Assembly (NCBI GenBank): GCA_964499275.1
Contig: CAZCKO010000006.1
Coordinates: 1 to 57,869 of the forward strand
Reading direction: 5' to 3'
Length of the DNA: 57,869 nucleotides
Source of the DNA: an uncultured Rhodospirillaceae bacterium
Lineage (GTDB): Bacteria; Pseudomonadota; Alphaproteobacteria; MPNO01; UBA2964
In this document: piece by piece, positions 17,656 through 44,797 of the stretch
How positions within the stretch are numbered: position 1 is the stretch's first letter
How the letters are laid out: every line of letters begins with the position of its first letter
Notes under the pieces: model-generated
Seen by the model: the letters and a program-made list of their open reading frames with translations, nothing else
Database searches by the model: none
What the model was told of the DNA's origin: nothing
Translations under genes and position numbers: made by a program

Positions 17656-18981
17656 TTAAAGCCCACTGGGTATTGGCCCTAGGGCAGAGCGCAATTGCTC
17701 ATCCACCCATTTTGCATGTCCTAAGGTTGCATCATCGGTATCACGTCGGCCAACCATCTGAAAGCAAAGCGGCATTCCACTTGGTCCTTCAAATATTGGA
17801 AAATTAACCGATGGTGTATACATCTGTGTCCAAAGTCTTGCAAAAGTTGCCGTACGGACCTCTTCCAGACCAATTGGCGGCTCACCTGGTAAACTTGGAG
17901 ATAGAATTAGGTCCCAATTATCGAAAAGCTTATCCATTTCAGATCGAGCAGCGTTCATCTTCTTTCCAGCATTCCGGTAATCCTCTTCGGTGAGACCCTT
18001 AACCCACTCGATCCTCTCGCGATTATGATCATTAAAACTTTCATAATGGTCACGAATTTCTGTTTTCAGCATTAAGGCAGCTTCCCAAGCGTTTATTACT
18101 GCTGCATCCGGAATAATATCCGTAAATAAAGGGGGCAAATCAAAGTTCCTCACAACAGCACCAGCGCCCCTCAATATTTCTGCTACTTTTTCTATAGCCT
18201 TTTGCATCGCCGGTTCTGCCTCATCCCATAATGGGGTCCGCAAGACACCTATTCGCAAATTATTTTTCGCATTCGATTCTGGCATACTTCCAGTTTGCAC
18301 TTGCCGAAGTACGATCAAATCCTCAATTGAACGGGCAAAGAGACCAATCGTATCAATCGATTTCTTGCAGTGGCGAATCCCGCCGCGATCAATTCCATCC
18401 AGGCTAGCTTTATAACCGTATACACCACAGTTTGCAGCTGGACCGATTACTGAGCCCCCTGTTTGCGTGCCGTTTGCAATCGGGACCATATAGTCTGCCA
18501 CTGATGCTGCTGAGCCACTTGAAGATACCCCGGGGGTCCGAGCAGGATCATGTGGGTTGAGTGTTTGACGAGGCTTAGGGCACGCAAACTCAGTTGTTAG
18601 GGTTTTTCCTAATATTACCAGTCCGGCATCACGCAATTGTGCGACACAGGTAGAATCCACATTAAATTCTTTCCCCAGGTATGGGGGGAAACCATGCCCA
18701 GTCGGCATATCTTTAGTATCAAAGATATCTTTTATACCTACAGGTACACCATGCAGTGGGCTGCGCCGGGGCAAATTATCTAGTGCGCAGGCCTGCTCGA
18801 GAGCATATTCAGGGTCTAGATGATCCCATGCAAAAATTTCACCATCTCGCGCTTCAATCCGGTCAAGACAATCACGTGTGAGTTCCTCGGAAGTAATCTC
18901 ACCCGCTTCAAGTTTAGCGGCGGCCTCTGCAGCGGTTAGCCCGTTCAATGCCAAAGGCCCCTTATCCTTAAGGTCAACCAT
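17656..18981 (-). CDS. amidase signature family protein
   Basis: GVPVGIKD, GKTLTTEFA, TPGVSSSGSAA, GTQTGGSV. Confidence 0.9.
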   Translation of the reverse strand: MVDLKDKGPLALNGLTAAEAAAKLEAGEITSEELTRDCLDRIEARDGEIFAWDHLDPEYALEQACALDNLPRRSPLHGVPVGIKDIFDTKDMPTGHGFPPYLGKEFNVDSTCVAQLRDAGLVILGKTLTTEFACPKPRQTLNPHDPARTPGVSSSGSAASVADYMVPIANGTQTGGSVIGPAANCGVYGYKASLDGIDRGGIRHCKKSIDTIGLFARSIEDLIVLRQVQTGSMPESNAKNNLRIGVLRTPLWDEAEPAMQKAIEKVAEILRGAGAVVRNFDLPPLFTDIIPDAAVINAWEAALMLKTEIRDHYESFNDHNRERIEWVKGLTEEDYRNAGKKMNAARSEMDKLFDNWDLILSPSLPGEPPIGLEEVRTATFARLWTQMYTPSVNFPIFEGPSGMPLCFQMVGRRDTDDATLGHAKWVDEQLRSALGPIPSGL

Positions 18982-19050: not shown

Positions 19051-20625
19051 TTAGCTTCTCAGCCTGAAACGCTGTATCTTACCGGTAGCCGTTTTGGGTA
19101 AATCATCAACAAAATTAAACCAGCGAGGATACTTGTAGCGTGCTAACCCCTCCTTACAGTGCTCAAGAAGTTCTTCTGCCAGTTCATCCCCTCCAGTAAC
19201 CCCCTCTGCAACGATAACGAAGGCCTCTGGCTTGATTAGCTTATTTTTATCCGCACGCCCCACTACCGCTGCTTCAAGTACATCAGGGTGCTCAATCAAC
19301 TTGGCCTCAATCTCAAACGGAGAGCACCATATACCGCCAACCTTCATCATATCATCGTTACGGCCACAATAGACAAAATAGCCGGCTTCGTCTTGATAAT
19401 AGGTGTCTCCGGTATTGATCCAGCCACTCTTTATAGTCTCAGCGGTCTTATCCGCATTATTCCAATAAGATTTTGCAATCGAATCACCGTGGATCCAAAG
19501 AGCACCGCTAGCACCTTGGGATACGATCTTGTCTTGTTCACCGACTATTCTTGCTTGATATCCAGGCACAAGCTTTCCGCTTGCTCCGGGCTTAACATCA
19601 TCGGCAGAATTAGAAATAAAGATATGCAAAATCTCGGTAGAGCCTATCCCATCAAGAATTATACTGCCTGTACTTTCTTTCCAGCGCCGAAAAATATCCC
19701 TAGGAAGAGCCTCTCCCGCTGAAACACAAAGGCGGATGGATTTAAGGTCAGGCCTTGAATTTTCAAGAGCTTGAAGCTGGGCTGCGTAGAGGGTCGGGAC
19801 ACCGAAATAAATTGTAGCTTTATATTTTTCAATCACTTCAAAGGTCATTGCAGGGTTGGGCGCAGACGATGAAAGTATTGCAGTGGCACCCACCCACAAG
19901 GGAAATGTCATTGCATTTCCTAGCCCATAAGCGAAAAATAGCTTCGCAGCTGAAAAACAAATATCTTCGCTGGTAATACCAAGCACCCCAACCGCATAGT
20001 GAATACAGGTGACAGGAATATCCTTATGTGAATGCACTGTACCTTTTGGCCTGCCGGTTGATCCGGACGAATATAGCCAAAAACAGTCCTCTTCTGCGGT
20101 GGCGGCAACCGCCCCTAATTTCGTTTGTGCTTCTTCTGCTAAATTAGCGAGGGAGGCGTCCCCTTCAGTCGATAGAGAGGGAATAGATCCAGATTTAACC
20201 GCTTCCAATGCCCCACCAACTTCCTCCGAATATTCCGGACTATAGACCACCAAACTGCAGCTCGAATCTTCAATCATATACCGATAATCATTACTGCGAA
20301 GCAGAGTATTGAGCGGTACAGGTACAATTCCAGCCTTAATGGCTCCCCAAAATATATAAAAGAATTGTGGGCAATCCTTTACGACCATTAAAACACGATC
20401 ACCCTTCGACAAACCCAACTTAATTAGAGCGTTGCCGTACCTGTTGACGTTCTCGAAAAGCTGTATGTAACTGACACAACCGAAATCGCCCTGGATCGCA
20501 ACCTTATCACTTCGCCCTTCGGTTAAATGCCGGTCTATAAACGGAACTGCAACATTAAAATTTTTCGGAAAAGTTATCTTTGCAGGTACTTGGCCGTAAT
20601 CCACAGTGATTTTATTATCTGCCAT
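19051..20625 (-). CDS. benzoate-CoA ligase
   Basis: FWLYSSGSTGRPKG, SAAKLFFAYGLGN, DGIGSTEILHIFISN, PKTATGKIQRF. Confidence 0.92.
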   Translation of the reverse strand: MADNKITVDYGQVPAKITFPKNFNVAVPFIDRHLTEGRSDKVAIQGDFGCVSYIQLFENVNRYGNALIKLGLSKGDRVLMVVKDCPQFFYIFWGAIKAGIVPVPLNTLLRSNDYRYMIEDSSCSLVVYSPEYSEEVGGALEAVKSGSIPSLSTEGDASLANLAEEAQTKLGAVAATAEEDCFWLYSSGSTGRPKGTVHSHKDIPVTCIHYAVGVLGITSEDICFSAAKLFFAYGLGNAMTFPLWVGATAILSSSAPNPAMTFEVIEKYKATIYFGVPTLYAAQLQALENSRPDLKSIRLCVSAGEALPRDIFRRWKESTGSIILDGIGSTEILHIFISNSADDVKPGASGKLVPGYQARIVGEQDKIVSQGASGALWIHGDSIAKSYWNNADKTAETIKSGWINTGDTYYQDEAGYFVYCGRNDDMMKVGGIWCSPFEIEAKLIEHPDVLEAAVVGRADKNKLIKPEAFVIVAEGVTGGDELAEELLEHCKEGLARYKYPRWFNFVDDLPKTATGKIQRFRLRS

Positions 20626-20689
20626 CTTTATGATCCTTTTTCAGTAATTAAATTCTATAGTGCTGAGAGATAAGACAAAAGAGAGAAGC

Positions 20690-21889
20690 ATGAATGAAAA
20701 TCAACCCATCATAATTGCCGGTGGGGGTATCGGCGGGTTAGCGGCTGCGCGAATGCTGGCGATTAAAGGACGACAGAGTATTGTATTGGAACAAGCTCCG
20801 GAATTTGGAGAAATAGGGGCTGGTATCCAACTCGGACCGAATACACATCGCATGTTTGACAGGTTGCAAGTCACAAAAGATATGCACGAAATTGGTTATT
20901 TTCCTGAGCATATAATCATGATGGACAGCCTAACTGGCGAAGAGGTGATTCGTATGCCACTGGGACGACAACTTGAATCACATTTTGGTAAACCTTACGC
21001 TGTTATCCATCGTGCTGATTTACATAGTGTGCTTTTGAACGCATGTATGGAAATGGATGAAATAGATCTGAGAACCAGTGCAAACGTGACCAGCTACAGC
21101 AGCAGGCCTCAAAGTATTATTGTAGAAACGGCTGATGGTAACACGTTTGAGGGGTCAGGCCTAGTAGGTGCAGACGGGCTATGGTCAAAAATACGAGCAA
21201 AAATAATTGGTGATGGTGACCCTGTTGTTTCTGGCCATATCGCCTATCGTGCTGTTCTGCCCGTTGACGAAGTACCACACAGTCTCAGTAAATGGATGGA
21301 AGATGTAGTATTATGGGCCGGGCCGCGTAATCACCTGGTGCACTATAAGCTGCGGCGGGGGGAATTATTTAATATTGTGGCAGTATTCCATAGTAAGAAA
21401 TACGTAGAAGGATGGGATGAGTTTGGAGACCCAGATGAGTTGTATAGCCATTTTAAAGAGGCAAGACCAGAAGTACGGGCTCTACTCAAAAAGATCGATG
21501 TCTGGAAAATGTGGGTCCTCTGCGACCGCATACCTAAAAAAGAATGGACCAAGGGCCGCGTTACCCTGCTCGGCGATGCCGCTCACCCCATGCTACAATA
21601 TCTCGCGGCTGGCGCCGGCATGGCAATGGAAGACGCCGTTTGCCTGGCTGACCTGATAGATCAATATGAAGGCGATATCGAAAGGGCTTTTTCCGACTAC
21701 CCTAAAAAGCGTTACATACGTGCGGGGCGCGTACAACTAACTGCTAGGTATTACGGCGAAATTTATCATGCTGAAGGTGTTACCCGTGAGTTGAGGAACC
21801 TGATGCTCGGGGGCGAAAAAAAAGGCAATCCATATGCAGGTGTCGAATGGCTTTATGGAAAAAATACCGGTTTACCAGGTGGAGGTTAG
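20690..21889 (+). CDS. 3-hydroxybenzoate 6-monooxygenase-like FAD monooxygenase
   Basis: GGGIGG, GEIGAGIQLGPN, DGLWS, VSGHIAYR, GDAAHPMLQY, ARYYGEIYH. Confidence 0.85.
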   Translation: MNENQPIIIAGGGIGGLAAARMLAIKGRQSIVLEQAPEFGEIGAGIQLGPNTHRMFDRLQVTKDMHEIGYFPEHIIMMDSLTGEEVIRMPLGRQLESHFGKPYAVIHRADLHSVLLNACMEMDEIDLRTSANVTSYSSRPQSIIVETADGNTFEGSGLVGADGLWSKIRAKIIGDGDPVVSGHIAYRAVLPVDEVPHSLSKWMEDVVLWAGPRNHLVHYKLRRGELFNIVAVFHSKKYVEGWDEFGDPDELYSHFKEARPEVRALLKKIDVWKMWVLCDRIPKKEWTKGRVTLLGDAAHPMLQYLAAGAGMAMEDAVCLADLIDQYEGDIERAFSDYPKKRYIRAGRVQLTARYYGEIYHAEGVTRELRNLMLGGEKKGNPYAGVEWLYGKNTGLPGGG

Positions 21890-21954
21890 ATAGAGTACTA
21901 AACCGCCCCTTCCACGCCACAAATCACGGTTAAACTCTGCAATCTTAACGCCTA

Positions 21955-23379
21955 TTAGTTAAATTTAACATACTCATAGTCAAAAGCGTGTCCATCTATA
22001 CCACGTCCGGGTGGTGCCACCCAGCTCGCTATTTTTCCTGGGTCTGTGCATGGCTTCTGCAAGGAAATTACGAACTCACGATCGGCCTGAGAAGGCAACC
22101 ACTGATCATGCCCCTTTTCCCATTCATCTTTCGAAATTACTTTACCCTCCGACGTTATAATCGCTTCAGCAAAAGTGCCAATCGATCTATGAAAGCCTCG
22201 ATGCGGTAGCGTTAACTCAAATTCAATTTTATGCCGCTTAATAGCTTTGTTCCAACGAGATACGCCAATTTGACAATCAGTCACGTAATCATCTCGCAAA
22301 CGCTCATTGACCGCTAACAGAGAGTTAAAATCAACATCCTTAATTACACCATCTTCGAACATCGTAACCTTGTCTACACCATCTTTTAATACATGGTCAT
22401 CATCAATTTTAGACTCTTCAAACCTGCCTTTTAATCCTGCGGTATAATAATTAGCTGCATTGGTTGAGATCTCCTGACCAAAAAGGTCGAGTGAGACACT
22501 GTAATGAAAATTAAGATATTTTTGCAGCGTTGGAAGATCGATGGCTCCTGCCGCTCTAATTTTTTCTGGATCATCGGTCTTGAGTTCATTCATCACCTCA
22601 CATGTTCGCGTGACGACCCGCATGACACCCGTCGTTCCTATAAACATATGATGCGCTTCTTCTGTCAGCATAAACTGGCAAGTCCGTGCCAAGGGGTCAA
22701 AACCTGATTCGGCGAGTGAGGATAACTGAAATTTCCCATCACGATCAGTAAAAAATGTGAACATGAAATATGATAACCAATCAGGGGTTTCTTCATTAAA
22801 AGCTCCTAGAATACGGGGCTTGTCAGGATCACCGGAATGGCGCTGAAGCATCATATCGGCCTCTTCCCGCCCATCTCGTCCGAAGTAAGCATGCAACAAA
22901 TAAACCATCGCCCAAAGGTGCCGACCTTCTTCGCAGTTAACCTGAAATAAATTGCGGAGGTCATAAAGCGAGGGTGCGGTTAACCCAAGAAGCCGCTGTT
23001 GTTCAACTGAGGCGGGCTCTGTGTCACCTTGTGTTACAATCAATCTACGAAGAGAGGCTCGATATTCTCCGGGAACCTCATTCCAAACTGGCTGACCTTT
23101 ATGCTCCCCAAAGGGAATTGTGCGGCCCTCTATTGGGGGTGCCAGAAAAATACCCCATCGGTATTCCGGCATTTTAACATACCCAAAATTTGCCCAGCCT
23201 TCAGCTTCAACGCTAATAGCTGTACGCAAATAAACGTCATAATTTTGTGTTCCCTCCGGACCGAGTTCCTTCCACCAATTAATGAAACTAGGCTGCCAAC
23301 TTTCTAGTGCCCGCTGCAAGCGACGGTCGTCAGCGAGCCCTACGTTGTTGGGAATTTTAGCGTTAAGATCAACTGCCAT
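21955..23379 (-). CDS. boxB: benzoyl-CoA 2,3-epoxidase subunit B
   Basis: KIPNNV, QGDTEPASVEQQ, EEGRHLWAMVYLL, DRDGKFQL, TEEAHH diiron motifs. Confidence 0.96.
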   Translation of the reverse strand: MAVDLNAKIPNNVGLADDRRLQRALESWQPSFINWWKELGPEGTQNYDVYLRTAISVEAEGWANFGYVKMPEYRWGIFLAPPIEGRTIPFGEHKGQPVWNEVPGEYRASLRRLIVTQGDTEPASVEQQRLLGLTAPSLYDLRNLFQVNCEEGRHLWAMVYLLHAYFGRDGREEADMMLQRHSGDPDKPRILGAFNEETPDWLSYFMFTFFTDRDGKFQLSSLAESGFDPLARTCQFMLTEEAHHMFIGTTGVMRVVTRTCEVMNELKTDDPEKIRAAGAIDLPTLQKYLNFHYSVSLDLFGQEISTNAANYYTAGLKGRFEESKIDDDHVLKDGVDKVTMFEDGVIKDVDFNSLLAVNERLRDDYVTDCQIGVSRWNKAIKRHKIEFELTLPHRGFHRSIGTFAEAIITSEGKVISKDEWEKGHDQWLPSQADREFVISLQKPCTDPGKIASWVAPPGRGIDGHAFDYEYVKFN

Positions 23380-23381
23380 TG

Positions 23382-25091
23382 TCAAACTCTCTTCTTATCA
23401 AATTCACTTCTTTGGCCAGTACCATAGAGTTTCAACGCACCTTCGGGACCCGCAGCATTTGGCCTTTGGAAGATCCAGTTTTGCCACGCACTCAGTCGCC
23501 CAAAAATTTTAGTTTCGATAGTCTCCGGACCAGCAAAGCGTAGGTTGGCCTCTAAGCCTGTTAAGCCATCCGGGGAAAAGCTCGCTCGTTCTTCTATGGC
23601 AAGGCGCACCTCATCTTCCCAATCGATATCGTCAGGAATGAAGGTCACAAGCCCCGCCTCATCTGCATCTTCTGCCTCCAAGGCCCTCCCTCTCAACAGG
23701 TTAGCTCCATCCAGTTTATCGGGTTCCCCAATGAGACGTGTTTCTAATCGTGTCATGCTATTCGACATTCGAAATGCGCCAAAATTCATAACCGTCAGGC
23801 GGACCGTAGGAGCCGGCAGGTTGCTCCCTTCCATTTGTCCATCCAACATATAGGAGCGATCTGCAATAAAAACCAATTCGAGCAATGTCCCTACAAAACA
23901 ACTACCCGGCTCAATGAGCGCAATGAGGCTGCGGGCTGAAACATCAATGCGTTTTAGAGTACGTTTTAAGTAGAGTGTGATTTCCCGGACTAACCAGTCA
24001 CCTTGGTTGGCGTCTAAAAGCTTGTCATAATTTTCTATAAGTTCACCATTACCCGTACTCTGAAAAACCCAGGTACCTATTTGGTTTTCATTCAAGCGAA
24101 GGTGAAGAATGGCAGCATCAAGCTCACGAGCCAAAGCTAAAGGCCAAAACCTGACCCCCTGTTCCTGGACGCCTTCAGCATCTAATGGCGGAGGACATTC
24201 TGGCCCTGCAATGAGAAAAGAAACAACGCCTTGTTCTCTGTCAAATTCAATCGTCAAATGATCGTAGGATATCTTATTATCATCCTCACTAAACTGCAGG
24301 GGCGTCAATTCGATACCCTTTTTATTCTTTGGCCGATCCGATTGGGAGGCGAATTCTTCTGCTCTTTCAGAGACTGTCTCCTCAAATTTTGACCGAGGAA
24401 CAGTTTCATCTATCAGGTTCCAATCTACTGCACGCTGGCCTCTCATACCTTCAGTAGTCGTACAAAATACATCTGAACGATCATGCCGAACTTTACGTTT
24501 ATCAACCAACCGGGTCAGTCCACCGGTGCCGGGAAGCACTGCCAACAAGGGTAATTCCGGTAAAGACACCGTAGAGGCTCCATCGTCAATTAACATGATA
24601 TACTCTGTTGCCAATGCCAGCTCATAACCCCCGCCAGCTGCGGTTCCATTGATTGCACAGATATATTTTTGGCCAGAATATTCCGTCGCATCTTCGATAC
24701 CATTTCTCGTTTCGTTGGTGAACTTACAAAAATTGACCTTATGATCGTGTGACGACAGCCCTAGCATTCGTATATTAGCACCTGCACAGAATACGGCTGG
24801 GTGATCTGAACAGATAACCACACAACCAACTTCTGGATGTTCAAACCGCAATCGTTGAACGGCATCGTACAGTTCAATATCAACACCAAGGTCATAGGAG
24901 TTAAGTTTTAACTCGTAACCAGGCTTTAATGTTTCAGCCTCGTTAACAGCCATTGCAAGACGGGCAACATTTTCATTTATCGTTAAATTCCAGTGTTTAT
25001 ATTGATCTGGGCTAGTCCCGAAACCAACAACCGGCTCCGCAACTCCATCGGAAAAGGATCCGGGCTTTCCAGCAGTGTCTTTTGCACCCAT
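23382..25091 (-). CDS. boxC: 2,3-epoxybenzoyl-CoA dihydrolase
   Basis: LKLNSYDLGVDIEL.DA.QRLRFEHP, KVNFCKFTNETRN, WQNWIFQRPNA; likely start MGAKD at 25091. Confidence 0.95.
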   Translation of the reverse strand: MGAKDTAGKPGSFSDGVAEPVVGFGTSPDQYKHWNLTINENVARLAMAVNEAETLKPGYELKLNSYDLGVDIELYDAVQRLRFEHPEVGCVVICSDHPAVFCAGANIRMLGLSSHDHKVNFCKFTNETRNGIEDATEYSGQKYICAINGTAAGGGYELALATEYIMLIDDGASTVSLPELPLLAVLPGTGGLTRLVDKRKVRHDRSDVFCTTTEGMRGQRAVDWNLIDETVPRSKFEETVSERAEEFASQSDRPKNKKGIELTPLQFSEDDNKISYDHLTIEFDREQGVVSFLIAGPECPPPLDAEGVQEQGVRFWPLALARELDAAILHLRLNENQIGTWVFQSTGNGELIENYDKLLDANQGDWLVREITLYLKRTLKRIDVSARSLIALIEPGSCFVGTLLELVFIADRSYMLDGQMEGSNLPAPTVRLTVMNFGAFRMSNSMTRLETRLIGEPDKLDGANLLRGRALEAEDADEAGLVTFIPDDIDWEDEVRLAIEERASFSPDGLTGLEANLRFAGPETIETKIFGRLSAWQNWIFQRPNAAGPEGALKLYGTGQRSEFDKKRV

Positions 25092-25375
25092 TTTCATTAT
25101 TCCTTTGCTAAACCCATAGGTTTGATCAACACCGTCACCAGCCCCTTTTATTTCCTCACAGAGACTTTTAAAAGTTAAGCTTTCACTCTTTATTATATAG
25201 TGTTTCAGCCCAGTTTTCCGAGAAATTAAAACTTCGATTGCTAATTGTTGACTAGTCACGTATGTATATATTAACAGGTTTGGCGCCGTCAACGACAGTA
25301 GCTAATGGGTGCAAATAATAGCTTATATTATTTGTTTCATGACAAAATTTATCAGTTCATGAACCAAAAAGAAAA

Positions 25376-26965
25376 ATGAATACTTATACCGGCAGCACCA
25401 AGAAACTCAAAAAAGATAGAGGGTCACCAGATACAACTCTACGTGATTGGATTGCCAAAAACGCTCAGGATAATCCCAATAAGGTATTTATCCAGAGTGT
25501 AGACCAAAATAAAGCGATTACCTTTGGTCAGTTCAAAACGGTCTGCGACCGCATAGCAAATTTCCTTCATTCAAGAAATTTCGGGCCGAATGACCGGATA
25601 GCGATGCTATCAAACAACTCGATACAGCATCTTTGCGTTTACATTGGCGGTATGGCTTACGGCATAACAGTTTGTACAATTCATGTTGAAATGAATGCCA
25701 TTTATTTTGAAAAAATATTAAAGGCGCTAAACCCTAAACTAATACTTTTTGACGAATCCGAAACACGGGTTGACGCAGATAATTTGAAAACCAGCACACA
25801 GGGGGAGTGGTTCAAGCTGGGCAACTGGGGCTCAAATAGTAGCAAGGGTGGTTTTTACGAAGAATTAGAAAAACACCCTGCTCAAGCATTAGAACCGATT
25901 AGTCGTTGGGAAGATGACGCCTCAATATATTATACCTCGGGCACCGCTTCCGCTCCCAAGGGCTGCATCGTTACATTTCGTGAATTAATAACAAATACCC
26001 CCCCAACTGCTGAAGGGCTTGGATTAACAAAAAATGACCGGATCCTTGAATTTAGAGCATTTAATTGGATATCAGCGCAAGTTCTTAGTGGTTTAGCACC
26101 ATTATCCAAGGGTGCCACCATCATCCTGGCCCAAAGGTTTTCGCAGAGTCGATATTTTGACTGGATAAGAAAATATAAGGTGACCATCGGGGTATGTAAT
26201 CCGACCGGACTTGCAATGTTTTTAAATCGACCAATAGCAGTCCATCAGAATGACATTCCGCACCTCCGTTTCATGACATCGTCTTCAGCACCGCTGATGC
26301 CAGAAACATGGAAGCAGTTTGAAGAACGTTACGGTATTCCTGTCGCTCAAGGTTACGGGTGCAGTGAGATAGGTTGGATAGCAGTCTCTGATGAGAACAG
26401 CCGCAAGTTTGGCACTGTTGGCAAGCCATTAGAATACCACAAACTTACTGTCATCAATTCAGACGGTGGGATAGTTCCCGATGGTGAGGTGGGCGAAATC
26501 GAATTGGGTGGCTTTGAAATTAATCAGTATCGTTATCTTGACGAATTCGGTGAGGAAAAAATACACGCACATAATAGACTTCGGACAGGTGATCTCGGCA
26601 TAGTGGACGAGGACGGCTGCGTCATCGTCACCGGCAGAGCTAAAGACCTAATTATTCGTGGAGGTGTTAATATTTCGCCAGCAGAGGTCGACAACATACT
26701 TTTACAAATGCCGTCACTCGGCGAAGCAGCGACCATTGGTGTTCCAGATCCAATTTATGGTGAAGAAGTTGTTTGCTATGTCGCCCCGAAACCAAAGAGC
26801 AAACTTACACCTGAAGACGTTTTGGAACACTGTACGGAAAGATTGCCTAAATTTAGGGTGCCCAAACAGGTTATTGTACGCCCTAAATTACCCAAAACTG
26901 AGCGGGGTAAGATGAACCGTTTGTTGCTTCAAAAGGAATGGCAGGAAGAATTCGGCACAAAATAA
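25376..26965 (+). CDS. AMP-forming acyl/aryl-CoA ligase, paralog 1
   Basis: YTSGTASAPKG, GYGCSE, RTGDLG, GRAKDLIIRGGVNI, PKTERGK. Confidence 0.9.
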   Translation: MNTYTGSTKKLKKDRGSPDTTLRDWIAKNAQDNPNKVFIQSVDQNKAITFGQFKTVCDRIANFLHSRNFGPNDRIAMLSNNSIQHLCVYIGGMAYGITVCTIHVEMNAIYFEKILKALNPKLILFDESETRVDADNLKTSTQGEWFKLGNWGSNSSKGGFYEELEKHPAQALEPISRWEDDASIYYTSGTASAPKGCIVTFRELITNTPPTAEGLGLTKNDRILEFRAFNWISAQVLSGLAPLSKGATIILAQRFSQSRYFDWIRKYKVTIGVCNPTGLAMFLNRPIAVHQNDIPHLRFMTSSSAPLMPETWKQFEERYGIPVAQGYGCSEIGWIAVSDENSRKFGTVGKPLEYHKLTVINSDGGIVPDGEVGEIELGGFEINQYRYLDEFGEEKIHAHNRLRTGDLGIVDEDGCVIVTGRAKDLIIRGGVNISPAEVDNILLQMPSLGEAATIGVPDPIYGEEVVCYVAPKPKSKLTPEDVLEHCTERLPKFRVPKQVIVRPKLPKTERGKMNRLLLQKEWQEEFGTK

Positions 26966-27023
26966 ATTTTAAGAATACAGCGTTTGTTTGTGCCCCTGCC
27001 TGCTACCGTGATAAAATACTCTT

Positions 27024-28580
27024 ATGAAGAGTACCCAATCAACAGAATACAAATCTGTTAGAACCTTAATTGCTGAACAGTCAGAAAAATACGGCAATAA
27101 ACCGTACATGGTGTCAATTGACCAGGCAGATAAAACTCTGAGCTTTGAAGCGCTTTTTAGGCTTGGCAACAGCATGGCTCAATTTTTTGCCGAGCGGGGC
27201 CTTAAGGCTAACGACCGTATACTTTTACTAGCAGAAAATTCTATAGAATTTATTGCCGTTTTTCTTGGGGTTCAACGGTGTGGTGGTACAATCGCCACAG
27301 CTAATGTAGAGATGAACAGATCCCATATCAGTGAAATTTTGCATGCGGTAAATCCCAGCCTGGTATTGGCACAAGATGGACTTGGCCTAGAAGAATTGCA
27401 AGATCCTAACATGTCTGCAGAATGGATGTCGCTCGGTGAATGGCATCCAGATGCCATCTCATCCGGCTTTTTCCATAAAATTTCAAATTATCCCGATGAC
27501 AAAGACCTAGACGAAGTTTGCTCAGCCGACGACATCGCTGTTATTTTTTATACTTCTGGGACAGAGGCCAAGCCCAAGGGGGTGATGCAACCACATTCAG
27601 CCGTTTGGCCCAACTATGATGCGACAGCGGAATGCGTTCAATTGGACCAAAATGGCCGGATCGTGGATTGCCGTTCCTATACGTGGTTATCATCACAGAA
27701 TATGAGCCTTGGAGGACCGCTAGCACGCGGTGCTACAGTTTACATGGCGAAAAAATTTTCACGTAGTCGCTATTTTGACTGGATAAAAAAATATAAAGCT
27801 ACAATGGGAGTTTCCGTACCAACAATCTTAAATATGTTTCTCAACGAACCTGTTGAAATTCATGGTAGAGAAATTCCTCACCTGCGCTTTATTATGACCT
27901 CTTCAGCACCGATGCTTCCCGAAAACTGGATCAAATTTGAAAAACGTTATGGAATAACAATCAGCCAGTCTGCTGGTTGCTCTGAGGGAGGGCTAATGTG
28001 CAGCCACGTGGGAGCAGATCGAAAAATTGGCACTATCGGATTTCCACTTAAATATCAGAACATTCGGCTTCTCAACGAGACCGACGATGAGGTTCCGCGG
28101 GGTGAACCCGGCGAGATAGTTGTATCTGGTCTGCAAAAGAGTTGGGGTTATTTACACCCAGACGGGAGAATAGAAAAACTACCACGAGAGCATCGAACTG
28201 GTGACCTTGGACAAATTGATGAAGCCGGCCACTTGACGGTAGTTGGACGTCTCAAGGATTTAATAATTCGGGGTGGAGTAAATATTTCTCCTGTCGAAAT
28301 TGACAACATCTTGTCGCAACACCCAGATATTGTAGATGCAGCAGCTTGCGGCATTCCAAACCAAATTTATGGTGAAGAAGTAATATGCTATGTCATAGCT
28401 CAAAAAGATAGCGAACTTAAAGCGGGGACGGTTATTTCTCATTGCCGTAAATCTTTGGCACTTTTTAAAACGCCTAAAGAGGTAATTTTTGTTGACCATT
28501 TACCGAAGAATGAGCGGGGCAAACTGGATCGGAAAGCGCTCACCCTATTATGGGAAGGAGATAACTTAGAAACGAAGTAA
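27024..28580 (+). CDS. AMP-forming acyl/aryl-CoA ligase, paralog 2
   Basis: YTSGTEAKPKG, SAGCSE, RTGDLG, GRLKDLIIRGGVNI, PKNERGK. Confidence 0.9.
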   Translation: MKSTQSTEYKSVRTLIAEQSEKYGNKPYMVSIDQADKTLSFEALFRLGNSMAQFFAERGLKANDRILLLAENSIEFIAVFLGVQRCGGTIATANVEMNRSHISEILHAVNPSLVLAQDGLGLEELQDPNMSAEWMSLGEWHPDAISSGFFHKISNYPDDKDLDEVCSADDIAVIFYTSGTEAKPKGVMQPHSAVWPNYDATAECVQLDQNGRIVDCRSYTWLSSQNMSLGGPLARGATVYMAKKFSRSRYFDWIKKYKATMGVSVPTILNMFLNEPVEIHGREIPHLRFIMTSSAPMLPENWIKFEKRYGITISQSAGCSEGGLMCSHVGADRKIGTIGFPLKYQNIRLLNETDDEVPRGEPGEIVVSGLQKSWGYLHPDGRIEKLPREHRTGDLGQIDEAGHLTVVGRLKDLIIRGGVNISPVEIDNILSQHPDIVDAAACGIPNQIYGEEVICYVIAQKDSELKAGTVISHCRKSLALFKTPKEVIFVDHLPKNERGKLDRKALTLLWEGDNLETK

Positions 28581-28600
28581 AAACCTGTTCATTATAAAAA

Positions 28601-29611
28601 CTAGTTTTCTTTTTGGATAAGTTTGGAAAGTAAATTTCGCGCCTGAATGGTTGGATGATCCATCGCAACATCGATTTGATGGGCCTCAGGAAACTGGTCT
28701 ACCCTGCGTTGTTGAGCCTCACAAATTGCCACATCCTCTTGGAACACTTTGCGAATAATGCTCAGATCTTTCTGTATAGCCGAATCATCAAGTCCAAAAT
28801 CACGGGCATTTGACCAAAAATGATGAGTTGTCGTAAGTGTCTCGGGAGTAATGGCATGAGCATTATGAACGCTTATACCATGTTCCCGATTGCCCTCGAG
28901 CGCACCCGTACCCGCCTGTGCCGCACCCACATCAAACATGATGGTTGCAGGCGGGGTATAAATCCAACGGTTCCAGCTATCGCCTTTACCCCTAATCTTT
29001 GCCGCCTTCGCCCATAATGGGGGAGGGTCATCGTTAGGAAACAGGCGCTCACATTTTAAAACATTATCTTCGCGGGTAACGGTTGGTTTAACACGTAATT
29101 TAGCAGAGTTGCCTAGGGTATCAGGATGTACATATGGGGAGTGGGTTTGATCCAGCTGGATATCGATATAAGCCTGATAGTTACATTCTACATAGAAGTA
29201 ATCATCTATATTTGCCCAGTCATTACTATCGAGAAAAAAGTAGTCTGGAATCAAACTCTCGTCCGCTTGACTAGCTTCACCCATCCAGATCCAAATCCAG
29301 CGATTCTTAACTACAACTGGGTAAGACCGCACGGAGGCTCCGGAAGGTATCAATTCTTGTGTAGGGATTGAGATACATTGGCCAGTTTTATCGAAACGAA
29401 GCCCGTGATAACCACATTCTACTTCATTACCCTTAAGCCTCCCAACCGACAGTGGCGCACTTCGATGACAACAACGATCTTCAAGGGCCCCCACTTCACC
29501 ATTTTCACCCCTAAAAAATACGATTGGCTCATCACAAATTGTCCGGGGTAGAAGTCCATGATTAAGATGATGATCCCAACCCGCGACATACCAAGCATTT
29601 TTTAAGTACAT
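28601..29611 (-). CDS. Rieske non-heme iron oxygenase, VanA-like
   Basis: YLKNAWYVA, Rieske CCH...CGYH, mononuclear Fe site D..H..YVH, ITPET...HFW, F.ED...EAQQ. Confidence 0.88.
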   Translation of the reverse strand: MYLKNAWYVAGWDHHLNHGLLPRTICDEPIVFFRGENGEVGALEDRCCHRSAPLSVGRLKGNEVECGYHGLRFDKTGQCISIPTQELIPSGASVRSYPVVVKNRWIWIWMGEASQADESLIPDYFFLDSNDWANIDDYFYVECNYQAYIDIQLDQTHSPYVHPDTLGNSAKLRVKPTVTREDNVLKCERLFPNDDPPPLWAKAAKIRGKGDSWNRWIYTPPATIMFDVGAAQAGTGALEGNREHGISVHNAHAITPETLTTTHHFWSNARDFGLDDSAIQKDLSIIRKVFQEDVAICEAQQRRVDQFPEAHQIDVAMDHPTIQARNLLSKLIQKEN

Positions 29612-29711
29612 TTTGGACCCTGCGTTAATTATTTCACCAACAAATTCAACCAACCGGAGTAGTAATTTTCGAACTAGTTAAAGAAGGCTGTCCAACTGAT
29701 AATACAGAAAT

Positions 29712-29737
29712 AAAAAGAGCGGCTCAATGAGCCGCCC
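29712..29737 (-). terminator. intrinsic terminator downstream of the UbiD gene
   Basis: Inverted repeat GCGGCTCA-A-TGAGCCGC followed by a T-run on the minus strand. Confidence 0.65.
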
Positions 29738-29759
29738 TATTCTTAAAACTCTTTTTATT

Positions 29760-31349
29760 CTATCTCCCGGTCCGAGCGAGCGAATGTACCCACCCCTTGT
29801 TGGTCATATAGGACTTAGCATGCTCAATTTGTTCATCGGAAAAGAACTTATCTGGAAAAACTTGATCTACTGGGTAAACGGGACGAAGAAAATCACTCTC
29901 GTAACCATAAGGGACGGTTGCATCAATACCCATTCCACCTTCAAATTGGGTATTTGACGCCGTCCATTCACGCTCACCCGCTGTCATGCGCTCAGCTGGC
30001 ATAAAGGTTTGGCCACGACCACCCGGTATCGGGTTAAGAATATCTGTCTGGGGATTGACGCGCGTTGTCAAATTCCAGATCACGTCATCCATATCATAAA
30101 TATCAGTATCTTCAGACATCGCGATTACCAAGCGCGACCCTTGTGAACAACTGAGGATGGCTGAGAGGAAATTACGCTGCCACCCCTCATCTATCTGACT
30201 ACGTTTTTTGACTTGAATGATGGCACCACCCCAATCCGTCATCGGGTAAGGAATATTACAATCCAGAATAATTCCCGGTTGCATGCGCTCACAAAGTTCA
30301 TACATCGCGGCCTCACGGACTGTCGTATCTATATTTTGACAATCCATCGTATGGACGCCTAAAGGAAAAATGATTGGTTTAGATTCCTTTGCACGCATGG
30401 TAACCGCGGTTACATGAAAGGTAGGTGCTTTGTAGGCTTTACCCATGTAGCCGGCCCATTCTGGGTGAAAATGAAATCGTCCTTGAACTCCGGCTTCTTC
30501 TGACTCGGCGGTCTCATATCGTCGATCCCGCGGATGCAAGTAGCCCTCGAGGGTAATTTCAGCATCTGCCAATGCATATGCGCCCGGTATAGTTTTTGCT
30601 TCCACCATCCGAACTGGTTCACCGATCAAACGACCGGCAACGCCCAGTTCATCGCACCCCGTAGGCAAGATTACATAGTCAAATCCGGCACCTGCCAAAA
30701 GATTTGGGCCATAGGGTATGCCAAAATTCATTGTAAGAGGAATGGGTTCTTCATCACGATAATGCTTGGCCATAACCTGCCAACCATGAGACCCTGGTGA
30801 AATTTGAAACGTACCAACATTACCCCACCTGAAATTCATCCGGTTATACGCCATATCTGTGCCACCTTCGAAATACTCTCCAGCAAAAAGACGTTGGCCA
30901 GAACCCACTGTAAGCTCCGATTCATACGTGGTGTGCCGGATTGGCATCATATACTCATTGACCTCAGTTGGATTTAAAATCACCTCCTCATGGCTTGGCG
31001 CGTCCTTTGAATCAACAATCACTGGCGGCAACGGGTTGCGAATTGCATTAGCAATCGCAAGTGTCATTTCTCGCATATCTCTAACGCCGAACAGCTTACA
31101 CATAACGCCATGATCAGCGAAAAGGTTGGTCACTGCACGATGGTGAGGCTTCCCTTTGACGTTGTTAAATAGTAGCGGGCAGCTACCATCGAGGTGTTTT
31201 TGAACACCCGTTATTTCTAGATCAGGGTCAACCTCCGTATCGGTTTCTATGATGTCGCCCTCCTTTTTTAGGAAGTCTATAGTACTGCGCAAATCACGAA
31301 GTGAGTCAGTTATAGGTGCTGGTTCAAGTTCTTCTCTGGCAGTGGCCAT
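29760..31349 (-). CDS. UbiD-family prFMN decarboxylase, phthaloyl-CoA decarboxylase (Pcd/PhtDa) type
   Basis: Long blocks YNRMNFRWGNVGTFQISPGSH, QGRFHFHPEWAGYMGKAYKAPTFHVTA, WTASNTQFEGGMGIDATVPYGYESDF and C-terminal SLARTGR match my recollection of denitrifier phthaloyl-CoA decarboxylases; 529 aa. Confidence 0.85.
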   Translation of the reverse strand: MATAREELEPAPITDSLRDLRSTIDFLKKEGDIIETDTEVDPDLEITGVQKHLDGSCPLLFNNVKGKPHHRAVTNLFADHGVMCKLFGVRDMREMTLAIANAIRNPLPPVIVDSKDAPSHEEVILNPTEVNEYMMPIRHTTYESELTVGSGQRLFAGEYFEGGTDMAYNRMNFRWGNVGTFQISPGSHGWQVMAKHYRDEEPIPLTMNFGIPYGPNLLAGAGFDYVILPTGCDELGVAGRLIGEPVRMVEAKTIPGAYALADAEITLEGYLHPRDRRYETAESEEAGVQGRFHFHPEWAGYMGKAYKAPTFHVTAVTMRAKESKPIIFPLGVHTMDCQNIDTTVREAAMYELCERMQPGIILDCNIPYPMTDWGGAIIQVKKRSQIDEGWQRNFLSAILSCSQGSRLVIAMSEDTDIYDMDDVIWNLTTRVNPQTDILNPIPGGRGQTFMPAERMTAGEREWTASNTQFEGGMGIDATVPYGYESDFLRPVYPVDQVFPDKFFSDEQIEHAKSYMTNKGWVHSLARTGR

Positions 31350-31678
31350 TTCTATCTCCTATTAGATCTTTTCGACATAAATTCCCGATGAATTTCTCTC
31401 GATAATATATCACCTCAAATAATGAGGTGCCCCTCGCGGAGCTATTTTTTACGTGGCTTATTAAAGAAATGCAAGTCCACAAAATCCCCACCAATTGTCA
31501 GAAAAGCCATATAAAACTCGTAGAAATAATACCTCAAAATGATTGAAATTTAGTTTTCTGACTTGAGGGTTAAAATCTTAAATCATTTCAACCAAACCAA
31601 GGTTGATTTTGCGTTGGTTGACTAACCGGGCAAACCTCTACACAACATATGCTGAATTAAACATGGGAAAGAATATTT

Positions 31679-32278
31679 ATGAAAAAGGAAATACTCCCTC
31701 ACCCAATTCGAAAATTCATTGACAATATCCGTTCCTATTTTTTCTAGGACATGGAAGGTGAAGATTTGTGGCGGCTCGTCGCGAATGATTTGAAAATTTT
31801 ATTAGGCGAGAAAAGTCTAATTGAGCAATCCAAGACCTGGCCAGACACCAAAATAGGGGATGGGCCGCCTTCTAATCTACTTTTTTACGAAGATCCCAAA
31901 TATGGTTTTGTTTTGAACGCTCTCGTTAAGGGGCCAAAGTCAGTGACTAATATTCATGATCATGGGCCCAGTTGGACACTTTACGGGGTACTTGACGGCG
32001 GTGAACATATCAGGCGGTTTCGGCGAGTGGATAATAATCCGCAGGAGGCAGGCCCAGCGGTATTAGAAACAAATGGTGAATTTGATGTCGTCCCAGGATA
32101 TATCGATATTGTTCCACCCTGGGAAATTCATCAAGAGTCTAATGGAGATCATCGAACCATCGGATTCATAGTTCGCAGCCAGCGATCCGGAACGTTTGAA
32201 CAATATCGCTACAACATCGAAAACGGTGCCATTGCCGTAAACAACGGACCAACACAAATTCCCTATGACCTGGCTTAA
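31679..32278 (+). CDS. cupin/cysteine dioxygenase-like protein; in-frame TAG at 31745-31747 separates a 22-codon N-terminal part from the ORF restarting at 31751
   Basis: IHDHG.SWTLYGV..G.E and PPWEIH cupin motifs; upstream in-frame ATG at 31679. Confidence 0.7.
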
Positions 32279-32553
32279 ATTCCGGCCGACCACAAAAAAT
32301 CGGTTCGACAAAAGGCTCAGAAAATTTATTATTTAGCATAAATTTTGCATTAAACATTTAGCTTGATAACGTCAAAAACGAAAAAATTTCCAAATATTGG
32401 AATATTTAAGAGGTATTAACTTTTTAAAATAGCGTTAATATTCGATTGTACCCCCTATTAATTAGATGCTAGCATTTTATTAAGACCTTAGAGAGTTAAG
32501 TCTATCGTCTTTTATTTTACTTTAATTTCAGTCCAAATCAGGGAGAACTGATA

Positions 32554-33585
32554 GTGATTAAAACTTTTAAATTAACCCTAGCGGCTACAGCGGCATTAAC
32601 GCTAATGGCTACGCCTACCGTTGCTGCCGATTATTTTTCTGGTAAACAAATTACCGTGCAGGTTCCTTCAGGCTCTGGCGGCACCTACCACGTTTATTGT
32701 CAGCTCGTACAAAGAAATATTGCACGCTACATTCCAGGTAACCCAAAAACAGTTATCCAAAATATGCCTGGAGGAGGAGGAGCTAAATCCGCAGCCTATA
32801 TGATGAACGTTGCCCCCAAAGATGGTAGCTTCATTGCAATGGCTGCCCCTGGTGTTATCACGACGCCAATGGTCCGGAAAGTGCGTTATGATGCCCGTAA
32901 GTTCAATTGGTTGGGTGCTCCTGCAGCCCGTGCCGCAGGCGTATTCTTTTGGCACACTCATAACGTAAAAAACTGGCAAGAACTCAAAACCAGACCAACC
33001 ACGATTGCAACGAGTGGATTTGCTTCGTCCGGTTCAATATTTCCGCGCTTAGTCAATGCTGTTCTTGGAACAAAGATGCAGTTGATCTACGGATATAAGG
33101 GCGGCGGACGTATGAACGTCTCTGTTGAAAAAGGCGAGACTATGGGTCGCAATAATTTCTTATCCGGTTTTACAGGGGTCCGGCCTACATGGTTACCGAA
33201 AGGTTTGGTTAAGCCTGTAATTATGTATGGGCCAAAATCACCGAGCAAATTTGCTAAAGGCGTGCCACGTCTTGATGACCTTCTTAAGCCAGGTACTATG
33301 GAAGCGAAGATGTATGAAGTGCTCGGCATGAACCTCAAAGTCGGCCAAGCGTTTTATGTCCCACCGGGAACACCACAAAAGGTAGTAAAGATTTTAAGAA
33401 AATCGTTCACGGAAATGATGTATCATCCTAGCTTTATCGAAGACATCAAAAAACGTCGTGTAGAGCATTCACCAGTAACAGCTAAACAAATCAACAAGTT
33501 GATAAAAGCTGGTTTCGATGCCGCAACACCAGACGTAATAAAAGCTATTAAAACTCGCGTGTTTACGAAGAAAAAGAAATCTTAA
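32554..33585 (+). CDS. tripartite tricarboxylate transporter substrate-binding protein (Bug/TctC)
   Basis: Signal peptide, GGTY, NMPGGGG, APKDG, GYKGG...E.GE, PPGTP. Confidence 0.87.
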   Translation: MIKTFKLTLAATAALTLMATPTVAADYFSGKQITVQVPSGSGGTYHVYCQLVQRNIARYIPGNPKTVIQNMPGGGGAKSAAYMMNVAPKDGSFIAMAAPGVITTPMVRKVRYDARKFNWLGAPAARAAGVFFWHTHNVKNWQELKTRPTTIATSGFASSGSIFPRLVNAVLGTKMQLIYGYKGGGRMNVSVEKGETMGRNNFLSGFTGVRPTWLPKGLVKPVIMYGPKSPSKFAKGVPRLDDLLKPGTMEAKMYEVLGMNLKVGQAFYVPPGTPQKVVKILRKSFTEMMYHPSFIEDIKKRRVEHSPVTAKQINKLIKAGFDAATPDVIKAIKTRVFTKKKKS

Positions 33586-33607: not shown

Positions 33608-33636
33608 AAGGCCCCTCGTAAGAGGGGCCTTTTTTT
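33608..33636 (+). terminator. intrinsic terminator
   Basis: AAGGCCCCTC-GTAA-GAGGGGCCTT followed by a T-run. Confidence 0.88.
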
Positions 33637-34895: not shown

Positions 34896-35888
34896 ATGGC
34901 AGATATAAAACTGACCATGGCAATCAATGAATATGATCATGTTCAGGACATGGCTACCGGTCGCGTAAAACCAGAAGGTATAAACCTTACAGTAATCAAC
35001 CATGGGCCGGAAGAAATATTCCATCGGTTTCTTTTTAGTCAGGAATGGGAAATATCCGAAATTTCGATGGGTATGAGCACCTCATGGATTTCTCGCGGGA
35101 ATGCCCCATTTGTCCTGATCCCTATATTTCCGTCTCGTGTTTTTCGGCATTCCTCTATTTATATACTTGAGGATGGACCTATCAAATCTGCCGCAGACCT
35201 CAAGGATAAGCGAATTGGTATTCCGGAATGGGGCCAAACAGCGGGGATTTATACTCGAGGTTGGATGGAACATACTGCCAAGGTTCCGCTAAGTAGCGCC
35301 ACCTGGTTTCAATCAGGTATCAATGACCCTGGTCGTCAGGAAGCATCTCAACTTAACCTACCTGAAGATATCAGCCTAACAATTGTTACTGACCGATCAC
35401 TTATGCAAATGATGTTCGACGGCGACCTGGATTGTGCCTTCTCTGCTCGTCCTCCCAAAGAATTTATTGCGAATGACCCAAGAGTGACTCAGCTTTACCC
35501 TAATTACCGCGAAGAGGAAGAAAATTACTTTAACGATACAGGCATTTTTCCGATTATGCATACTATCGCCGTTCGTCGCGATGTCTTTGAAAAGAACCCA
35601 TGGGTCGCTCAAAATTTGATGACCGCCTTTGAAGCGGCCAAGTCACGTAGCTTCCAACGGATTTCTAATTTCACTGTTTCGCAACTTCCTGTTGCCTGGG
35701 CTTATTATGACGGGCTGGAAAACAACCGAAAAATGTTTGGCGACGAACAGTGGCCATATGGCATAGAGGCAAATCGTACAACTCTCGAAGCTTTTCTGCA
35801 GTTTGGATTCGAACAAGGAACGTTGCACAAAAAGCTAGAGGTTGAGGACCTTTTTCCTGAAGAAGTCCGGCACCACTTTAAACTCTAA
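34896..35888 (+). CDS. 4,5-dihydroxyphthalate decarboxylase-like protein
   Basis: L.MA..YDH....G.V.PEGI.L, EIF.RF, FPSR.FRHS, G.PEW.QTA, TGIFPIMH, WPYGIEANR.TLE. Confidence 0.78.
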   Translation: MADIKLTMAINEYDHVQDMATGRVKPEGINLTVINHGPEEIFHRFLFSQEWEISEISMGMSTSWISRGNAPFVLIPIFPSRVFRHSSIYILEDGPIKSAADLKDKRIGIPEWGQTAGIYTRGWMEHTAKVPLSSATWFQSGINDPGRQEASQLNLPEDISLTIVTDRSLMQMMFDGDLDCAFSARPPKEFIANDPRVTQLYPNYREEEENYFNDTGIFPIMHTIAVRRDVFEKNPWVAQNLMTAFEAAKSRSFQRISNFTVSQLPVAWAYYDGLENNRKMFGDEQWPYGIEANRTTLEAFLQFGFEQGTLHKKLEVEDLFPEEVRHHFKL

Positions 35889-39913: not shown

Positions 39914-39934
39914 TATTGAAATTCGGCCCCGTGA

Positions 39935-40801: not shown

Positions 40802-40991
40802 CAGTATCCCCTCAAAAATTAATTATCATGGAACATATGAATATTTGTGAACGAAGTACGGTGTCAACGAGGTCCAGACACAAACAACTTGGGCACACAG
40901 GATTTAGATGATTTTTATTGAGGAACAACACTTCAATTGACCCTTTGATGAACGGAAACTATTTTGCGTTTAAGATTTGTTTCAGGCGGAG

Positions 40992-43760: not shown

Positions 43761-43768
43761 TGTTTGGT

Positions 43769-44140: not shown

Positions 44141-44165
44141 AAACATAATCAAACAACCTGTTAAA

Positions 44166-44795: not shown

Positions 44796-44797
44796 AA

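Follow-up and report, generated by a model that had tools for sequence, protein, structure and literature searches.

By which route might an uncultured marine alphaproteobacterium bring phthalate, or a diacid much like it, into its central metabolism? The question is raised by a gene cluster at positions 19051-33585 of a 57,869-nucleotide stretch of DNA (contig CAZCKO010000006.1 of assembly GCA_964499275.1, assigned to an uncultured Rhodospirillaceae bacterium), which at its full length is called the window below. In this cluster a UbiD-family gene resembling those of phthaloyl-CoA decarboxylases (Pcd) lies with two acyl-CoA ligase genes and with boxB and boxC, the genes for epoxidation and ring opening of benzoyl-CoA. 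A small number of denitrifiers and sulfate reducers are known to decarboxylate phthaloyl-CoA, a capacity commonly seen as a recent adaptation to plasticisers. A sequence-only reading of the window had proposed that the organism activates phthalate or a related diacid with ATP-dependent ligases, decarboxylates the thioester and opens the ring with BoxBC. From the comparisons reported here we consider it reasonably probable that the cluster acts on o-phthalate, or on an analogue very close to it, and that a ligase and Pcd turn this substrate into benzoyl-CoA, which BoxBC then takes over.

Results

The window is contig C6 of a metagenome-assembled genome (MAG; G000) of 2.74 Mb in 146 contigs, 96.6% complete, and its close relatives are marine MAGs labelled Rhodospirillaceae, Rhodospirillales or Alphaproteobacteria bacterium. 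Gene calls were taken from the list of open reading frames (ORFs), families were assigned by NCBIfam and Pfam profile scans, and solved relatives were found by sequence search of the PDB. Every gene that the sequence-only reading had named was recovered at 19051-33585 as an ORF of the corresponding family. Four genes had gone unmentioned in it: a 3-hydroxybenzoate 6-monooxygenase (3HB6H), a Rieske oxygenase, a cupin-like ORF and a gene of the 4,5-dihydroxyphthalate decarboxylase family.

The gene on which the proposal turns is pcd (29760-31349, minus strand), predicted to encode an orthologue of the UbiD-family phthaloyl-CoA decarboxylase, which depends on prenylated flavin mononucleotide (prFMN). 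Its product matched the Thauera phthaloyl-CoA decarboxylase (PDB 8pmk and 8oz5) over residues 17-529 with 810 bits and an E value of 5.9e-243, the next-best UbiD protein in the PDB being protocatechuate decarboxylase with 166 bits. It is 66.3% identical to the Pcd encoded on a plasmid of Aromatoleum aromaticum EbN1 and shows the three-domain UbiD architecture, with PF20695, PF01977 and PF20696 all above cut-off. The nearest UbiD paralog outside the Pcd family in the same genome, on contig C48, is 37% identical to it, and an alignment of 19 diverse Pcd sequences had a mean column identity of 80%.

To place this protein, a tree of 110 rows was computed with FastTree (Shimodaira-Hasegawa-like, SH-like, support) from the window, 18 genome loci with the closest copies, further genome loci, 79 of 80 metagenome loci and EbN1, with the 37%-identical paralog as the single outgroup; the sample was drawn up without L053 (463 amino acids, too short), the enzymes of sulfate reducers and the isophthaloyl-CoA decarboxylase. 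All 109 Pcd-family rows, EbN1 among them, came together on one side of the long outgroup branch (about 2.1), and the family is tight, its internal branches being at most about 0.2. The window protein falls within a 26-row marine alphaproteobacterial clade (SH-like 99), and the EbN1 enzyme in a separate clade of five rows (SH-like 100). The earlier description of this UbiD as Pcd-type is thus upheld by the match to the solved enzyme, by the identity to the EbN1 protein and by its position inside the Pcd family in this FastTree phylogeny with one outgroup.

Two ligase genes lie 1.2 and 2.8 kb from pcd. Lig1 (25376-26965, plus strand; PF00501 and PF13193), a candidate phthalate (aryl-dicarboxylate) CoA ligase, and Lig2 (27024-28580, plus strand) are both of the AMP-forming type and matched no equivalog model above its cut-off. 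They are 41.7% identical to each other, and of the proteins with solved structures they come closest to oxalyl-CoA and malonyl-CoA synthetases, dicarboxylate enzymes to which they are distantly related (E about 1e-54). The benzoate-CoA ligase (BCL) of the same cluster is 24.6% identical to Lig1 and belongs to a different ligase clade. The closer relatives of Lig1 and Lig2 are found next to other Pcd genes: ligases that in other lineages are encoded 138-1166 bp from Pcd are 48.7-49.0% identical to Lig1, and one from a metagenome, encoded 30 bp from a Pcd gene (L054), is 61.9% identical to Lig2. Lig2 also groups with a paralog of its own genome on contig C48, where the neighbouring gene is the Pcd-like UbiD of 37% identity.

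These relations were examined in a second FastTree phylogeny (SH-like support) of 66 ligases, 49 of them encoded near Pcd genes and 17 from G000; ORFs shorter than 430 amino acids, such as the L097 ligase, were removed before counting, and long-branch joins among the background ligases were flagged. A Pcd-associated clade that contains both Lig1 and Lig2 took up 49 of the 66 rows, with an SH-like support of 100 and a stem of 0.98. It holds all 30 ligase rows from the window's own Pcd clade, 14 of the 19 Pcd-adjacent ligases of other lineages (for several the distance to Pcd is just 30-151 bp) and five of the 17 ligases of G000. The other five Pcd-adjacent ligases lie outside it, three being benzoate-CoA-ligase-like and two being long-branch rows.

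The alternative means of activation is a class III CoA transferase. None was found in the window ORFs scanned, and the EbN1 transferase pair, searched against the whole genome, gave best matches that were 24-34% identical and all on other contigs; Alphaproteobacteria that carry a genuine transferase pair show 56-61% identity to that of EbN1. Within 4 kb of the 109 Pcd-family loci there was a ligase at 31, a transferase pair at 22 and neither at 18, the remaining 38 offering too little flanking sequence. In the 26-row clade of the window, 17 rows had a ligase within this distance and none a CoA transferase. Over the whole Pcd tree the two kinds of neighbour swap repeatedly, the fewest label changes being 16 for the ligase and eight for the transferase, and none of 500 shuffles gave values as low. 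Together these data constitute good comparative evidence that Lig1 and/or Lig2 would make the substrate of Pcd, and the proposed activation by ligase rather than by class III transferase gains support from the lack of a close transferase relative in the genome and from the position of both ligases in the Pcd-associated clade.

Some Pcd genes stand in other company. The largest soil-type Pcd subclade (L061, L068, L074 and L086) has no ligase or transferase nearby; at L061 the Pcd gene adjoins those of a 1168-residue protein (major facilitator superfamily, spermidine-synthase-like and tetratricopeptide-repeat), an SLT transglycosylase and an alpha/beta hydrolase, and ORFs of similar size occupy the equivalent positions at L068, L074 and L086.

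On the far side of the ligase genes lie boxC (23382-25292, minus strand; TIGR03222, 870.8 bits against a cut-off of 712, residues 89-636), for a 2,3-epoxybenzoyl-CoA dihydrolase, and boxB (21955-23385, minus strand; TIGR03225, 838.8 bits against a cut-off of 499), for the oxygenase subunit of benzoyl-CoA 2,3-epoxidase. The boxC-boxB unit diverges from lig1-lig2, the called starts of the two being 83 bp apart, and each of boxB and boxC has a single match in the genome, the one in the cluster. The benzoyl-CoA reductase subunit B had no match anywhere in the genome. This pairing, with the only boxB and boxC matches of the genome, supports, as far as sequence comparison can, the ring opening by BoxBC that the first reading had put forward. 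The boxC profile match begins at residue 89, and the true start codon of this gene may lie downstream of 25292. Next to the pair is the BCL gene (19051-20625, minus strand), whose product belongs to the benzoate-CoA ligase family (TIGR02262, 614.7 bits against a cut-off of 375), separated from boxB by 3HB6H. An amidase-signature gene (17656-18981, minus strand) that scored below every equivalog cut-off lies directly downstream of BCL on the same strand.

The BoxC reaction releases formate. The window also carries a formate-dehydrogenase-like set at 38219-47404, 5-13 kb downstream, comprising NuoF-like, molybdopterin-subunit, FdhD, MobA-like and MoaA genes; a tie between this set and the formate from BoxC would be speculative.

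The gene order pcd, Rieske, lig2, lig1, boxC, boxB, 3HB6H, BCL recurs wherever the flanking sequence allows among 18 genome loci whose Pcd is 85-98% identical to that of the window, with some insertions and with some loci keeping one ligase only. Metagenome contigs L048, L049 and L051 repeat this order, and contigs from marine sequencing runs of other studies span lig1-lig2 and Rieske-pcd in one piece. The flank on the dksA side of the cluster is conserved in related loci as well. Among the further genes, 3HB6H keeps its position at 78-95% identity, the cupin-like ORF stays beside pcd throughout the clade (63-86% identity), the 4,5-dihydroxyphthalate decarboxylase-family gene remains syntenic (75-94% identity), and the Rieske gene adjoins pcd in most loci of the clade, a 40-45% identical relative occurring near Pcd in some other lineages. 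Since the linkage is conserved in relatives, and since the same ligase family recurs beside Pcd in unrelated lineages, it goes beyond chance. The synteny held in related genomes and in metagenome contigs alike, and the arrangement is a lineage trait common to many marine MAGs, not a one-off.

A weak hint of expression comes from a seawater RNA library (X20), in which contigs 90-97% alike were found for boxB, boxC, the Rieske gene, pcd and the TctC-like gene, although such contigs are no proof of transcription. None of the contigs of this library fell on BCL, 3HB6H, lig1 or lig2, which is no evidence that these genes are silent.

At identities of 66% or more to the query, Pcd-family genes turned up in ten of 400 other Alphaproteobacteria, sampled evenly by family, and in 37 of 40 other genomes of the window's order. 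Copies of the window type, with at least 87% identity, were encountered in no family but that of the window, whose genomes keep two Pcd-family copies together. A database search with the window Pcd returned 1191 matches at E <= 1e-20 among 8000 candidates scored, and the best 120 of these 1191 were 67-93% identical, their sources naming MAGs of several phyla. Family divergence, the vertical pattern in the order and the conserved synteny in open-water bacteria speak for an age beyond that of industrial phthalate, and the sequences suggest that the Pcd family is much the older of the two.

In G000 the second Pcd-family copy (C21:30955-32532, corresponding to L023:9956-11533) is 68.4% identical to that of the window. 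Its neighbours are two TauD-type dioxygenases and an alpha/beta hydrolase, and a ligase belonging to the Pcd-associated clade lies 8 kb off. Counterparts of this copy, each flanked by two ligases, are present in the complete genomes of a different family within the order.

The UbiD family as a whole is expanded in these bacteria. The 2.74-Mb genome has 30 UbiD (PF01977) genes, for example at C38:20748-21341, C32:12835-15095 and C4:35173-61314, and one UbiX gene; among 40 other genomes of the order, members of four families have 26-38 UbiD copies and those of a fifth 7-14. No description of a UbiD expansion in a marine alphaproteobacterial order was found in the open-access literature of PMC and bioRxiv.

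The remaining genes of the cluster fill the spaces between these units. The 3HB6H gene (20660-21889, plus strand) encodes a flavoprotein that scored as a 3-hydroxybenzoate 6-monooxygenase equivalog (NF006021, 503.4 bits against a cut-off of 459). Between Lig2 and pcd lies the gene for a VanA/DdmC-type Rieske mono-oxygenase component (28601-29653, minus strand; PF00355 and PF19112), whose nearest solved relative is DdmC, the dicamba O-demethylase (E 2.3e-50); no gene for a reductase serving this component was found within the cluster. A terminator-like hairpin, identified by consensus match only (29716-29738, minus strand), with a ten-pair stem of which seven are GC pairs followed by a T run, separates pcd from the Rieske gene. 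Divergent from pcd is the cupin-like ORF (31751-32278, plus strand), which codes for 175 amino acids and has no Pfam or NCBIfam match; its features resemble those of cysteine-dioxygenase-like cupins, which we take as a lead only. The last gene, at 32554-33585 on the plus strand, encodes a TctC-like periplasmic carboxylate-binding protein (PF03401, 37.9 bits against a cut-off of 27, over residues 258-320 only) with an N-terminus resembling a signal peptide, and a second terminator-like hairpin matching the consensus follows at 33608-33631. Across the genome there are 19 TctC-like genes and nine TctA permease genes.

The arrangement of the ORFs suggests that the cluster is transcribed as four units. 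The first consists of boxC-boxB divergent from lig1-lig2, the second of pcd, the third of the Rieske gene, and the fourth of the cupin-like ORF together with the TctC-like gene. Counts of promoter-like and terminator-like sites were no higher than in shuffled sequence, and Rfam gave no match at gathering score within 15000-38000. As no transposase family turned up in the family scans of 50 window ORFs, the GC content is even across the window (0.43-0.49) and the dksA-side flank is conserved, the cluster is no recent mobile insert; it is best explained as chromosomal and vertically inherited.

An AhpD/CMD-like gene follows just past position 33585. Beyond it, the ORF at 34896-35888 (plus strand) was considered as a second TctC-like gene and ruled out, being unrelated to TctC: it has no Pfam match, its only NCBIfam match is one of 21 bits to SsuA, and over residues 3-322 it matches PDB 9jp7 (E 3.7e-57, 197 bits), which assigns it to the 4,5-dihydroxyphthalate decarboxylase family. 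The genome has 16 places resembling this gene. Amidohydro_2 genes number 32 in the genome and three in the window (11980-13008, 14880-15752 and 39935-40801), and two of the window proteins resemble 4-sulfomuconolactone hydrolase below the cut-off of that model. Also in the window are an HpcH-type aldolase, a glutathione S-transferase and a cupin resembling 3-hydroxyanthranilate dioxygenase.

Discussion

We propose a pathway of the following kind. A TctC-type binding protein would help in the uptake of the diacid, which Lig1 and/or Lig2 would convert to its thioester with ATP and CoA. Phthaloyl-CoA is very labile, according to the available passages of PMC13040137, and the Pcd orthologue would decarboxylate it at once to benzoyl-CoA, with prFMN supplied by the single, unlinked UbiX. 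BoxB would then epoxidise benzoyl-CoA with oxygen and BoxC would open the ring hydrolytically, while the benzoate-CoA ligase could channel free benzoate into the same route. The exact substrate, the division of labour between Lig1 and Lig2, the electron donor of BoxB and the roles of the Rieske oxygenase, 3HB6H and the cupin are parts of the scheme that we infer.

Several findings weigh against this scheme in its simplest form. The breakdown of plain phthalate needs neither a Rieske oxygenase nor a 3-hydroxybenzoate hydroxylase, nor a pair of differing ligases. BoxA is not apparent: its model (TIGR03224, cut-off 459) scored no more than 25.9 bits in the genome, 96.6% complete, and no more than 71 bits in five related genomes (G309, G169, G398, G282 and G401), which have boxB and boxC and one of which is a 4.1-Mb single-chromosome MAG. 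Likewise, NF008868 (PRK11903), which we take to be the model of the BoxD-type dehydrogenase, reached at most 117.5 bits against a cut-off of 444 in the genome, where seven places look like general aldehyde dehydrogenases. As BoxA and a canonical BoxD were not found, the route, if it runs, needs another reductase for BoxB and another aldehyde dehydrogenase for the BoxD step. The genome holds a second Pcd-family copy, that on C21, and 28 further UbiDs, so the substrates of these enzymes may have diverged. UbiX was not among the window ORFs scanned, the single gene of the genome lying unlinked on contig C85, and the review PMC13040137, in the part available, describes UbiX as encoded in all known anaerobic phthalate clusters. 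Lastly, Pcd-family genes are not always clustered with an activating enzyme, since 18 of the 109 loci lacked both kinds of activating gene over a distance of 4 kb; ten neighbouring ORFs at five of these loci (L045, L061, L062, L115 and L118) belonged to unrelated families, and no third activating enzyme was recognised among them.

Part of these difficulties would be removed if the chemistry were the same and the substrate another, that is, a substituted or more highly carboxylated ortho-dicarboxy aromatic compound, examples being a phthalate with a hydroxy or methoxy group and a benzene tricarboxylate derived from oxidised aromatic organic matter. The substituents would then be handled by the Rieske oxygenase and 3HB6H, and plain phthalate would be a side substrate at best. 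Such a reading would account for the two distinct ligases, for the two Pcd-family copies side by side in genomes of the family, for the conserved VanA/DdmC-type oxygenase beside pcd with its relatives in some other lineages, and for the 3HB6H equivalog and the 4,5-dihydroxyphthalate decarboxylase-family gene in synteny. It is also in keeping with a genome rich in UbiD, 4,5-dihydroxyphthalate decarboxylase-like and Amidohydro_2 genes (30, 16 and 32 places), and with a Pcd family so diverse (66-100% identity) and so nearly universal in the order that a purely man-made substrate fits ill. On the other hand, about two thirds of the residues are identical to those of enzymes shown to use o-phthaloyl-CoA, and the short divergent spacing between the ligase genes and boxCB suggests that the product is unsubstituted benzoyl-CoA. 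The enzyme of Azoarcus sp. PA01, moreover, is reported in the accessible part of a preprint to be inactive on the iso- and tere- isomers (bioRxiv 10.1101/2022.07.29.502009). We retain the substituted substrate because of the conserved neighbours without a role in plain phthalate breakdown and because of the second Pcd copy, and regard it as rather unlikely.

That these genes are mere neighbours in a general aromatic-acid region, the ligases activating unrelated acids and Pcd acting on a substrate made elsewhere or on no CoA ester at all, appears very improbable: the window is indeed rich in other aromatic genes (the three Amidohydro_2 genes, the HpcH-type aldolase, the glutathione S-transferase and the 3-hydroxyanthranilate dioxygenase-like cupin), the content between pcd and the ligases varies in relatives, some loci have one ligase only, and unrelated genes stand beside Pcd at the five scanned loci free of ligase and transferase, but the same ligase clade recurs beside Pcd in independent lineages, often at 30-151 bp, the replacement of ligase by transferase on the tree (16 and eight changes) was matched by none of the 500 shuffles, and synteny is conserved throughout the window's own clade.

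The ligase-fed route from o-phthalate to the Box pathway resembles several known systems in part. An aerobic hybrid phthalate pathway of denitrifiers, with activation by a CoA transferase, was reportedly described by Ebenau-Jehle in 2020, and the box genes of those denitrifiers may lie apart from their pht genes. It shares with the route proposed here an oxygen-independent decarboxylation of phthaloyl-CoA that feeds the oxygen-dependent Box route, and differs in that the window has ligase activation and contiguous ligase, pcd and boxCB genes; the available text of PMC11451385 mentions an aerobic hybrid route from phthaloyl-CoA through benzoyl-CoA to Box. The pht clusters of the denitrifiers Thauera chlorobenzoica, EbN1 and PA01 likewise have a UbiD-family Pcd as key enzyme and benzoyl-CoA as product. 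However, the EbN1 cluster lies on a conjugative plasmid, next to an IS5 transposase, and consists of UbiX, Pcd, a pair of class III CoA transferases and a TRAP transporter, whereas that of the window is chromosomal and has no transferases and no linked UbiX; in their place it has two AMP-forming ligases, a TctC-type binding protein and boxBC adjacent.

With regard to activation, PMC13040137 gives two known routes, each leading to Pcd: denitrifiers use a CoA transferase, Desulfosarcina cetonica an ATP-dependent ligase. The latter, as described in PMC13040137 and PMC9516798, parallels the route proposed here in its steps. D. cetonica is a strict anaerobe, and in anaerobic phthalate degraders in general benzoyl-CoA passes to reductive dearomatisation, as outlined in the accessible part of PMC9516798, whereas the window has boxBC adjacent and its genome has no match to benzoyl-CoA reductase subunit B. 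Syntrophorhabdus aromaticivorans also combines a ligase and a UbiD decarboxylase on the CoA ester of an aromatic diacid, isophthalate. Its ligase is PaaK-like, as far as the available section of PMC9516798 goes, in contrast to Lig1 and Lig2 with their oxalyl-CoA and malonyl-CoA synthetase relatives, and the UbiD of the window is of the ortho-phthaloyl type, unlike its isophthaloyl-CoA decarboxylase.

Three Alphaproteobacteria of another family (G398, G128 and G282; loci L041, L043 and L044) also have Pcd and boxB/boxC within about 6 kb. These loci carry both class III transferases (56-61% identical to those of EbN1) and no ligase, and their Pcd, 77-81% identical to that of EbN1, falls in the EbN1 clade. 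Because transferase-type Pcd genes occur beside boxBC in other Alphaproteobacteria, what sets the present lineage apart is the ligase form of the linkage alone. The first reading knew of no description of such a linked arrangement in Alphaproteobacteria, and a search of open-access papers and bioRxiv found none; an estuarine study, in its accessible part, confines the known degraders to Beta- and Deltaproteobacteria and adds Gammaproteobacteria (PMC8269228). What is already known is Pcd with a transferase in denitrifiers, where it supplies either reductive or Box routes, Pcd with a ligase in a sulfate reducer and an isophthalate ligase with its decarboxylase in a syntroph. What is new is that aerobic marine Alphaproteobacteria have the ligase form, that it is physically joined to boxBC, and that neither a linked UbiX nor BoxA accompanies it.

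We may go one step further and suppose, tentatively and against the odds as we see them, that the cluster is the last funnel of an order-wide set of decarboxylases that strip carboxyl groups stepwise from benzene polycarboxylic acids and other carboxyl-rich aromatic acids of the sea. If so, the ligase, Pcd and Box genes would turn the final ortho-diacid into central metabolites, and Pcd-based phthalate catabolism would be an old natural trait and no recent answer to plasticisers.

In summary, a conserved chromosomal Pcd cluster in uncultured open-water marine Alphaproteobacteria, predicted to be fed by ligases and wired to the Box pathway, alters the picture of a recent adaptation, and the near-universal presence of Pcd in the order, together with its diversity across phyla in metagenomes, argues for a natural pool of substrates and for an age beyond that of industrial phthalate. 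Some finished single-contig genomes in the order may be from cultured strains, which would make the prediction testable at the bench. If confirmed, it would provide an aerobic, ATP-driven route for the fate of phthalate in sea water, a candidate family of phthalate CoA ligases and a BoxB system that operates without BoxA, as well as a lead on the role of an unusually large set of prFMN-dependent decarboxylases in marine carbon turnover.

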